From assembly GCA_045611785.1 (NCBI GenBank), contig JAZKXV010000021.1, positions 14,903 to 78,902 on the forward strand: a stretch of 64,000 nt of DNA, in the 5' to 3' direction. Position numbers: made by a program. Source of the DNA: Alphaproteobacteria bacterium. GTDB lineage: Bacteria; Pseudomonadota; Alphaproteobacteria; RF32; CAG-239. Below are positions 39,001-42,000 of this stretch, piece after piece (the stretch's first letter is position 1; the number at the start of each line of letters is the position of its first letter).

Positions 39001-42000
39001 CATATTCACTTAATGTTGAAACCAATGATTGACACGCATAATTTAAATCTTTTAGAGCATCTTTTCTATCAGGAACAGATAAAATAACATAGTGAGTATT
39101 GTTGAAAACCCTAGACATTCCGGAACGCCACACATTGGATATACGCTCTAAAAGTTCATTATTAAAATTACCCTTATCATTATCTAAAACACTTAATTCT
39201 CTTAGTGTAATAACACGGCTGGTAACTTGAAGATCTGACATATTATCAATCCAAGCTTTACGAGCCTCCATCATGGAATAAACCTTTTCCGGTGTTGCTG
39301 AACCCAAATCCATACCGTTAACTCTAAAAACGCGGACAAAAGAGCCGTTAGAACAACGTATTGTCATTCCGTCTTCCATTATCGATGCAAATGGCAAAAA
39401 GTCAGACACGCGAGATTCTCGCGGCTGAGGCAACACCATGTTTCCAAACTTACCTATCGTTAAAGCCGAAAAAGCAACAGCTGATATAAAACCAATAACA
39501 GCGACGATAACTTCAACGCTGCTCAAACCTTTTACAAAAAGAGATACAAAATCAAAATCAGGGCTCAAATTTATTCCCCTTTTCAGCATATATATTTTTA
39601 GAAACCAAATTTGTCTGTCCAAATGCTTGTATCATTGCAGATAAATGTGGATCCCTAGTTCCTGCGAACACCACCAAACCATGCACTATAAGAATACTGA
39701 AAACAAACATTAAAGGGTTAATATTCCAAACACCCATTGACATAAACATTATAGGAAATTGGATACCCATATTTAAGACGACAGGCAAAACGGGGCCCCA
39801 AAAAATCTTTGGAGGTTGTGCAACCGCTTTTAGAACCATATCTCGCATCTAAATCTCCTACATAAATCTTACTTAATATAAAAAAACGACACTCATTAGT
39901 CAATATTATATATATTAAATTCCACCAATATATTCACAACTTTTCGGCAGAGGTGCTTTCACCCCTCTGCCGAAATATTGATACATTTTACTTATTCCTA
40001 CCAGTAATTCTACCCCATTGGTATTCAGCATTATCAGCAGCATTACCAACATCGTTGCCCATACCAGTCCAATCGTTAATATTACCTTGAGAATCATTAA
40101 CTCTATCAGACGCATTATTTAAAGCATCAGAAGCACCTTCCATACCAAGATAATCAGCCACTTGTCCTGTATTAGATAAAGCCCCATGGATATCAGATCC
40201 AACGCCCGCTGTAGTATTACCGATACTGTTAGAAACATCTCTTAATTTATCAAAAAAGTTACCATCTCCTTTGATAATATCTCTAACATCTCCAGCTCCG
40301 GCAATCGCACCAGCAACCGCATTTTTACCATGCTCAATAGCATCCATCGTATTTCCAACATTATTAATGAAATTACCAACACCGTTAATAAAGTTTTGAG
40401 CCCTTTCTTTAAAAGATTTCTTTTCCTCTTCCGGAGTTACAGGATCAGCCGATGATGAACCACCAGGCGTTGCTAAACCATCATTAGAATTTTGAGTTGT
40501 AGCACCCGGGGTATCAATACCAGGACCCTCCGGCAATGCACCCATTCCATCGCCATCGCCATCGCCAGCACCAGTACCATCGCCATCATCTTCACCATGG
40601 CCAAACTGAACACCATCACCAGCACCTGCGCCACCTTCACCGCTACCATCACCGGTGCCGTCACCATTAGCGCCACCTTCACCGCCGCCGTAATTAAACC
40701 CATTATCACTACTATCACTAGGGCAAGTATTGGTCTGTTCACAAGCAGATGCATTGTAAGATGGGCTACCTCCTTGCGCAGCAGTATCGTTAATGAAAGA
40801 TCCATAATCAAGATCGTTTTCTTCTAACTCACCACCAAAGTAATTAATGAACGGTGTCATCAACGCCAAAAGCGACAAGCTTATCATGATATAAGCCAAA
40901 TGCTTAAAGCTGATTTTATTAAAAATAGCCAGCACAGAAAACATAACCAAGCCAAAACCGGCGATAACGTATACAATTTTACGAACGTCTCTTACCGTAC
41001 TTACCATTTTTGCTTGGATAATTTGAAAGATATCTCCATCCGCAAACGCCATTGATGGTAAAACAACAACCATCAACAACGATAGTAAAAGGATTTTTCC
41101 TACCTTATTAAAATAACTTTTCATCTTACCATCCTCCAACTTTAAATTATATCACAATTATCCTTCTCCGGTTTTAAGCGTATCACTAATACCTTTAGGA
41201 CTAACATCCACACCCGTTCCGCTAACCAAATATTTAACAGCCGAAACAGTAAGAGCAATTACTACCAAACCTATAATTATTGCACTGAGCCACTTCCAGT
41301 TAAGAACACCAAAGAAACCACCAATAGCGACAGCTATGATACCAAAACCAGCCGCACCAAAAATTATTTTACGCATGCCGCGAAAAATTTCCCAACCTGT
41401 ATCCGTCAGATTTTCAAATACCGCATGCGCATCCGCTACGCATAAAATCGAAGAAACTACAAACAACATCAGCCCAGCAAGAAAATATTTCTTAAAATTT
41501 ACACCCAGCATATTTTTTCCCCATATTAAATTAAACGAAAGGAGAAAGTCCAAACGGACTTTCTCCTTATTAGCAGACTTATTTACCTGTCATATCACTG
41601 TTTTGGAATGAGTCGCTAAGATCTGTTTGAGCAGTATTTGCACCTGTTGCGTAGTCAACGATAGCACCTGCTGCCGCCAAAATAGCCAAACCTACTGCAA
41701 GACCAGCAAACCAAGGCCATTTAACTTTACCGAAGATTGCTTGGAAAGCTAAAGCAACTAAACCGAAACCACCAACTACGAATACGATAGTTTTAACTGC
41801 TTTAAATACGCTAACTGCTTTATTTTTAGCTGTTGTCATAACGCTAGTTGCAGCATCTGCATCACCAGATAAAGCCAATGTAAACACAACTGTCAATGCG
41901 AGTAATGTAAACATATTATTTTTCAAAAATTTTAACATCATTTTTCTCCTTTTTAACAATAGTAACAAAACTTCTTATACAATTATAGAATACCAAACTT

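Follow-up and report, generated by a model that had tools for sequence, protein, structure and literature searches.

What does a VirB2 pilin do with some 280 additional residues behind its two membrane helices? This question is raised by three adjacent minus-strand genes, here called classes A, B, and C, in a stretch of 64,000 nucleotides from an Alphaproteobacteria bacterium (assembly GCA_045611785.1, contig JAZKXV010000021.1, positions 14,903 to 78,902; the whole stretch is referred to as the window). Canonical VirB2/TrbC precursors comprise about 100-150 amino acids (aa), with few residues after helix 2, and to our knowledge VirB2 proteins have been treated as minimal hairpins of about 70-100 residues, all solved pili of type IV secretion systems (T4SS) being built from such units. 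In class C, the VirB2/TrbC core is what is known, while its size, with hundreds of extra residues following the hairpin, is what is new. The sequences indicate three old members of the family, the third of which carries a selected domain that a minor pilin may well present to the outside.

Three paralogs of the VirB2/TrbC family

TrbC/VirB2 (PF04956) is the best Pfam match for A, B, and C alike. With respect to the curated cut-off of this family (27.9 bits), class A scores above it (37.4 bits), while B (22.1 bits) and C (17.7-21.6 bits) both remain below. Classes A and B also have the size typical of the family, about 100-150 aa with a short segment after helix 2, whereas class C does not. A comparison of profiles with hhalign nevertheless aligned the class C cores (n=20) to class A (n=16) over 109 columns, with a probability of 99.2% and an E value of 8.9e-20. 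In addition, 15 of the 20 class C cores matched TrbC at E<0.01 (best 8.1e-8) and no other family was recurrent, so that the possibility raised with the original prediction, namely that the hydrophobic N-terminus would match no VirB2 profile and belong to an unrelated membrane protein, is not borne out. Several class C homologues have a precomputed PF04956 match, and a search with the class C core profile retrieves short proteins of 110-200 aa sharing 40-50% identity, most of them with PF04956; one short class C relative carries the NCBI name TrbC/VirB2 family protein. In the PDB, nothing matched a profile built from the three cores at E<=1, which is ascribed to VirB2 sequences being too divergent.

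Signal peptides and transmembrane segments were read from hydropathy and from motifs in the sequence. All three proteins display a signal peptide with an A-x-A motif, two hydrophobic helices, and a short basic loop, and the A, B, and C proteins from the window and from two distant loci align without any gap over the signal peptide and both helices, with invariant columns I, G-F-G, F, L, and Y. Together with the hairpin modelled by AlphaFold2 (AF2), described below, these features agree with the two-helix core that had been proposed for the three genes, as the Pfam and hhalign results do with their VirB2/TrbC identity.

Regarding their extent, the three same-strand open reading frames (ORFs) are found as described, at 41579-41968, 41158-41553, and 39988-41139, all on the minus strand; with an arrangement that recurs in 53 loci and a statistically strong core homology, they are no product of chance. 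These maximal ORFs of 129, 131, and 383 aa begin at TTG codons. The sizes of 129 and 131 aa previously given for the two compact pilins hold for the maximal ORFs but not for the probable proteins, which likely comprise 120 (or 119) aa for A and 117 aa for B, against 378 aa for C; the ATG starts are preferred because of ribosome-binding sites, of a hairpin covering TTG 41553, and of independent gene calls. More precisely, class A (41579..41941, minus strand) would start either at ATG 41941 (120 aa), which is preceded by an AAGGAG ribosome-binding site, or at ATG 41938 (119 aa). Class B, a VirB2-like paralog of 117 aa (41158..41511, minus strand), would start at ATG 41511, the TTG 41553 of the middle ORF lying within a perfect 13-bp hairpin. 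Finally, class C, the extended paralog of 378 aa plus stop (39988..41124, minus strand), would start at ATG 41124, which is preceded by GGAGG. Gene callers on three near-identical metagenome contigs retained proteins of 119, 117, 378, 96, and 810 aa. The class C product is 100% identical to NCBI protein P0001 (378 aa), and P0096, a 378-aa protein from the same 90%-identity cluster, is encoded in the three further metagenome contigs, whose class C differs from that of the window by about one amino-acid change.

The trio lies directly upstream of virB3-virB4, and the same order is observed in related loci. A scan restricted to one genome per species provided 62 loci from metagenome-assembled genomes (MAGs) of gut, caecum, and rumen, whose hosts include human, mouse, rabbit, deer, goat, yak, and reindeer. 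The A, B, and C orthologous classes follow each other in fixed order in 53 of these 62 species-level loci, with a median pairwise core identity of 0.71 for A, the most conserved class, 0.66 for B, and 0.59 for C. As far as sequence relationships and synteny can tell, A, B, and C are thus ancient, vertically inherited VirB2/TrbC paralogs of a chromosomal VirB-type T4SS in an uncultured alphaproteobacterium of the animal gut.

The tail of class C

The class C protein begins with a signal peptide (residues 1-28; 41041..41124, minus strand, as for all segments of the protein), which ends with AFA, has a predicted cleavage site before D29, and whose hydrophobic segment and A-x-A motif align with those of classes A and B. 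It is followed by the VirB2 helical hairpin (residues 29-98; 40831..41040), supported by AF2, the family alignment, and hhalign; AF2 places the two helices at residues 33-68 and 73-96 with a predicted local distance difference test score (pLDDT) of about 70-80. The basic loop and helix 2 (AIFNKISFKHL ... PFINYF, with N-K-I-S-F-K-H as the loop) are nearly invariant in the family. Behind the hairpin come a conserved stretch that includes the cysteine loop C-x6-CP (residues 99-140; 40705..40830), a low-complexity spacer rich in Gly and Asp that is full of gaps and cannot be aligned across the family (residues 141-231; 40432..40704), and a C-terminal domain that can be (residues 232-378, 147 aa; 39991..40431). 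The tract of about 110 aa and the conserved-looking domain of about 150 aa that had been described are therefore both closely recovered, the former as the variable low-complexity part around residues 141-231. Residues 106-245 contain 25% Gly and 12% Asp, and the spacer, predicted by AF2 to be disordered, shows weak tandem repeats of 6 and 12 nt.

These segments do not evolve alike. Compared with a relative of 70% identity, the core is about 95% and the C-terminal domain about 88% identical, while the spacer has been essentially replaced. In terms of the ratio of nonsynonymous to synonymous substitution rates (dN/dS, Nei-Gojobori), values that are rough as synonymous sites are near saturation, 0.01 was obtained for the core (against locus L067), 0.12 for the post-helix segment, and 0.07 for the C-terminal domain, versus 0.51 for the spacer, which also contains 20 gap codons. 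The difference between 0.07 and 0.51 shows that the tail is a real, selected domain on a freely evolving tether.

The C-terminal domain is acidic, and G, N, A, and D are abundant in it. Its alignment columns average about 30% identity in the family, the tails of which have a median net charge of -15. AF2 run on this domain with 44 sequences predicts an all-alpha arrangement of six amphipathic helices (pLDDT 53), and the full-length run with 28 sequences also leaves the domain at low confidence (pLDDT 49). A profile search of the PDB detected a weak similarity, at E of about 1e-3, with helical bundles and coiled coils such as coronavirus HR1 and apolipophorin III. In order to find out whether the domain is fused to other proteins, as had been suggested as a check, its profile was searched against 1.84 billion representatives, resulting in 164 matches. 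The strong ones are all built alike, as proteins of 320-650 aa that end with the domain, and the VirB2 core is also present in 35 further representatives among the matches. Weaker matches, made of multiple stretches in giant proteins, were rejected as promiscuous apolipoprotein/ApoLp-III-like amphipathic repeats. As a specific family, and as judged from these matches, the domain is thus found only behind a class C VirB2 core.

The class C homologues form 94 clusters, whose sources are in every case metagenomes or MAGs with the label Alphaproteobacteria, and in 94 of 94 the tail after helix 2 has at least 132 aa (median 286 aa). The third gene encodes 316-1185 aa in 53 of the 53 loci, and 56 of the 64 extended paralogs match the C-terminal domain profile; L066, an additional locus from a rumen MAG, has a tail-less class C of 144 aa. 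Several lineages have an extra 55-630 residues, often a K/E/A-rich coiled coil, between the signal peptide and helix 1. In particular, at L045-L053, L056, L060, and L065, class C reaches 782-1185 aa and contains a K/E/A-rich coiled-coil insert of 200-630 residues before helix 1. Solitary extended VirB2-core genes of 526-837 aa were also observed outside the T4SS locus (L055, L057, L061-L064); the UMGS63 genome has two such copies, and two other genomes have two each beside the copy of the T4SS locus. Sister lineages with the same synteny have a third gene of 127, 153, or 197 aa, whose tail is absent or about 25 aa long, or else Cys-rich and of about 50-100 aa. A recent gene fusion was considered as the origin of the long form and rejected, the ORF after the short class C having its own signal peptide and no match to the C-terminal domain. 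The third-gene position is therefore prone to elaboration across lineages.

Placement of class C and competing explanations

In VirB2 proteins, both termini are periplasmic as long as the protein resides in the membrane and both face outward in the assembled pilus. Because of this N-out/C-out topology, the class C tail would be periplasmic before assembly and directed outward once polymerised, and the large inserts found before helix 1 in other lineages lie on that side of the membrane as well. An even number of tail cysteines (0, 2, 4, or 6) is seen in 94 of 94 homologues, 82 of which have a C-x(2-8)-CP motif, and this parity fits disulfide formation outside the cytoplasm. Surface decoration and recognition of a host or partner, as put forward in the original prediction, fit both the topology and the cysteine parity and are plausible.

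The abundance of the three subunits may be reflected in RNA structures. A perfect 13-bp stem-loop resembling an attenuator or stabiliser lies directly after the class A stop (41539..41568, minus strand; free energy dG -20.9), a strong terminator-like stem-loop is found after the class C stop (39942..39976, minus strand; dG -25.7), and the window itself has no hairpin after B. In the 53 loci, the hairpin after A has a dG <= -17 in 43 cases, with differing sequences and a median of -22.8, and the best hairpins after B and C have median values of -4.4 and -18.2, respectively, the latter being often followed by a T-run; for 90-nt windows drawn at random from these loci as a control, the median is -10.7, and a dG of -20 is reached by 2.7%. 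This pattern of a strong hairpin behind A, none behind B, and a terminator-like one behind C suggests that A is the major pilin and that C is minor; the post-A hairpin would act as an attenuator or stabiliser that leaves A abundant and both B and C minor. As a separate observation, the strong post-A hairpin is absent from 10 of the 11 insert-bearing loci (all but L065), these being exactly the ten loci that lack it.

On these grounds, we lean towards a model in which class A would be the canonical and probably major pilin, class B a second short pilin, and class C a minor one. The latter would keep the Sec signal peptide and both membrane helices with the short basic loop between them, followed in its tail by the cysteine-loop segment, the Gly/Asp tether, and the acidic helical domain. 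Present at low abundance, it could be co-assembled with A and B or occupy one end of the T4SS filament, either tip or base, the helical domain then hanging outside on its flexible tether and contacting a target surface or partner. That class C is such a minor pilin, whose hairpin enters or caps the filament and whose tethered domain makes the contact, is somewhat favoured.

Several points weigh against this minor-pilin model. Pilus formation, the incorporation of class C, its stoichiometry, and its binding role are deduced from sequence features, and it is from the RNA hairpins that its sub-stoichiometric or terminal placement is derived. An appendage of 280 residues on every subunit of a VirB2 lattice is sterically doubtful, for which reason the display model needs class C to be sub-stoichiometric or terminal. 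As to the C-terminal domain, its models are of low confidence (pLDDT 49 and 53), it matches no Pfam family, and a Foldseek search of the PDB returned nothing below E 0.3. Besides, neither a polytopic VirB6-like protein in the T4SS cluster (15740-37056, minus strand) nor a VirD4 in this cluster or the 64-kb window was found, so that the machine may differ from the canonical working. Finally, the tail shows no variation among three near-identical strains, so that in these three contigs there is no sign of antigenic variation or hypervariation of the tail at strain level.

A broader form of the display idea can be put forward only tentatively. Class C would then be a natural display pilin bearing, at one outward terminus or at both, large folded ectodomains of 280 to over 1000 residues, yielding a decorated or capped pilus for attachment to host or microbe and representing the first such T4SS subunit, while the specialised paralogs may share the platform role of VirB6, which is not recognisable in this machine.

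An explanation that we regard as unlikely, even if it deserves serious attention, is that class C remains unpolymerised, as a periplasmic part anchored in the inner membrane by its VirB2-type hairpin and serving as platform, nucleator, or channel spacer, and maybe replacing VirB6. It would account for the lack of any polytopic VirB6-like ORF in the cluster, for the presence of exactly one class C gene per canonical T4SS locus examined, and for the near-invariant cytoplasmic or lumenal loop AIFNKISFKHL, as would be expected of a fixed protein-protein or lipid contact; in addition, bulky tails fit poorly in a helical pilus lattice. Nevertheless, VirB6 may be encoded elsewhere, the window covering 64 kb of a larger genome, and a two-helix hairpin is no obvious stand-in for VirB6 with its five or more transmembrane helices. 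The coiled-coil inserts of 300-630 residues and tails of 450 residues that some homologues carry would moreover, if extended, far exceed the width of the periplasm, and the solitary class C-like genes away from the T4SS locus in some genomes would be more readily understood for a variable surface part than for a fixed platform.

It is also known that RP4 TrbC and Agrobacterium VirB2 undergo C-terminal trimming before cyclisation. In the light of such processing in the family, the tail could be a pro-region or a cargo, cleavage after helix 2 giving a pilin of normal size and freeing the helical domain to the periplasm or medium; the conserved stretch of about 40 residues after helix 2 could hold the processing site, and a flexible spacer would be open to proteases. 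This scenario is nonetheless improbable, since no TraF/LepB-like maturation peptidase is identifiable among the proteins of the 64-kb window and lineages with large N-terminal inserts would require a second cleavage. The strong purifying selection on the C-terminal domain also speaks against a disposable pro-peptide, although a functional domain that is released would still be compatible with it.

Finally, the idea that the long ORF is an artefact, be it a mis-assembly, an erroneous fusion of genes, a pseudogene, or an unrelated membrane protein resembling VirB2, is effectively refuted: while the class C of the window does score below the TrbC cut-off (17.7-21.6 versus 27.9 bits) and low-complexity DNA is able to produce spurious ORFs, independent assemblies show the same architecture in 62 genome loci and more than 90 protein clusters, core and C-terminal domain are both under purifying selection, profile homology to class A reaches E 8.9e-20, three further contigs encode a near-identical class C of 378 aa, and the ORFs following the short sister class C genes are unrelated to the C-terminal domain, without any sign of an error fusion.

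Surroundings of the locus and significance

Downstream of class C, a VirB3-like protein of 96 aa (39558..39848, minus strand) has a weak Pfam VirB3 match (14 bits), and a conserved 96-aa ORF separates class C from VirB4 in every locus examined. A sigma-70-like promoter is matched upstream of virB3 (TTGACT-17-TATATT, 10/12; 39875..39903, minus strand), as a match to the consensus only. The VirB4 ATPase (37136..39622, minus strand), whose maximal ORF has 828 aa and for which gene callers gave 810 aa, is supported by TIGR00929 (389 bits) and PF03135. Further along this strand, four secreted proteins of 426, 220, 429, and 1410 aa lie between VirB4 and VirB8; hydropathy reveals only an N-terminal signal peptide in them. 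Beyond these four ORFs come two VirB8, a VirB9, a 1702-aa beta-flower/RHS-repeat protein, a 1418-aa VirB10, and a VirB11. The VirB8 tandem paralogs (260 and 259 aa) and VirB9 (570 aa, with a weakly SPOR-like C-terminus) occupy 26045-29631 (minus strand), and VirB10 and the adjacent 1702-aa protein, both very large and repeat-rich T4SS components, occupy 16721-26048 (minus strand). About seven beta-flower repeats (PF21785) precede the TrbI domain of VirB10, and its 1702-aa neighbour comprises 18 beta-flower stretches, RHS-repeat matches, and one strong transmembrane helix.

The 426-aa secreted protein (35776-37056, minus strand) may be a VirB5/TrbJ-like tip protein, a candidacy that profile matches did not confirm. 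Its mature part opens with FGFPTFD and contains helical repeats of the KDAVDSA type, and its relatives in L071 and L073 have IPVTDA where the window has FGFPTFD. An hhalign comparison of the C-terminal domain profile of class C with this VirB5-like neighbour gave a probability of 13.6%, and the proposal that the C-terminal domain itself substitutes for VirB5 was rejected, as it matches neither VirB5/TrbJ in Pfam nor any fold in the PDB.

A type IVb pilus operon starting at 42359 (42359-53449, plus strand) diverges from the VirB2 genes and encodes a TcpQ-like protein, a PilN secretin, PilO, an ATPase, a T2SSF platform, and a PilS-like pilin; its pairing with the VirB2 genes is kept in every related locus examined. 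Elsewhere in the window are located a second PilS-like pilin (6130-6834, minus strand), a second small T2SSE-family ATPase of 318 aa (61058-62014, minus strand) that is situated at a distance from the T4SS and type IVb pilus operons, and an ORF of 1147 aa (763-4206, minus strand) with a type IV prepilin-like leader (..GGSMMVEAM..), which may be a giant pilin-like adhesin. A secreted protein of 1840 aa (7299-12821, minus strand), situated between the Mla and pilin-like genes and having a borderline match to a pectate-lyase-like adhesive domain, may also be a large adhesin. Since housekeeping genes, including a tyrosyl-tRNA synthetase, AnmK, MlaA/MlaC, and a DegT aminotransferase, flank the region, the locus is regarded as chromosomal. 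Neither the region nor class C or class A, used as DNA or protein queries, found a match in PLSDB, and with the chromosomal flanks this led to the rejection of a known plasmid system. No relaxase was found within the 64-kb window, and no significant RNA family was detected in the region with Rfam.

The trio can be compared with several known systems. Agrobacterium VirB2, RP4 TrbC, and R388 TrwL have in common with it the signal peptide, the two helices, the basic loop, and the adjacency to virB3-virB4, but these canonical proteins are short, whereas class C has 280 further residues and its homologues are extended before the hairpin, after it, or at both ends. In the Trw system of Bartonella, which has no VirD4, the trwL (VirB2) and trwJ (VirB5) genes are tandem, recently duplicated, and variable, and variant adhesion filaments have been proposed. 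The window contains three VirB2 genes, one VirB5-like candidate, and no VirD4 within its 64 kb, but the three VirB2 genes are old orthologous classes over 53 species rather than recent tandem duplicates. The type IVb minor pilins TcpB and CofB, in which a pilin module is followed by a flexible linker and C-terminal domains, are of low abundance and have a proposed tip or initiating role; their likeness to class C is a functional analogy only, with an unrelated pilin superfamily and assembly machine and no homology.

Multiple copies of VirB2 are known from Bartonella Trw, Anaplasmataceae, and Patescibacteria, the latter with a six-pilin array (PMC12857230). The present locus is alike in its divergent tandem VirB2 genes and in its chromosomal T4SS, which is not obviously conjugative because no VirD4 or relaxase lies nearby; an extended VirB2 is not mentioned in that paper, whereas here one class has large domains. 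Domain-expanded VirB6 proteins are known as well, in the rvh system of Rickettsiales and others (PMC12857230), and again a membrane subunit of an alphaproteobacterial chromosomal T4SS is enlarged by hydrophilic domains. In this case, however, the enlarged subunit is VirB2, and no VirB6-like protein is present in the cluster, whose other enlarged or duplicated subunits, namely the two VirB8 and the 1418-aa VirB10, can be likened to the extended-VirB6 systems. A domain-expanded VirB2 is not described in the searchable literature, the coverage of which is incomplete.

The locus offers a compact system for asking how paralogous pilins serve one machine, with a co-conserved set made of the three pilin classes, the post-A hairpin, the type IVb operon, and the enlarged VirB10, and with no VirB6 or VirD4 in the cluster. 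Class C would widen the range of designs known for T4SS filaments, and it points to a natural scaffold with which proteins could be displayed on conjugative-type pili. If the display reading is true, VirB2 would be far more modular than current structural models of T4SS pili assume, and class C is a candidate for how abundant, uncultured Alphaproteobacteria of the gut and rumen contact their surroundings.

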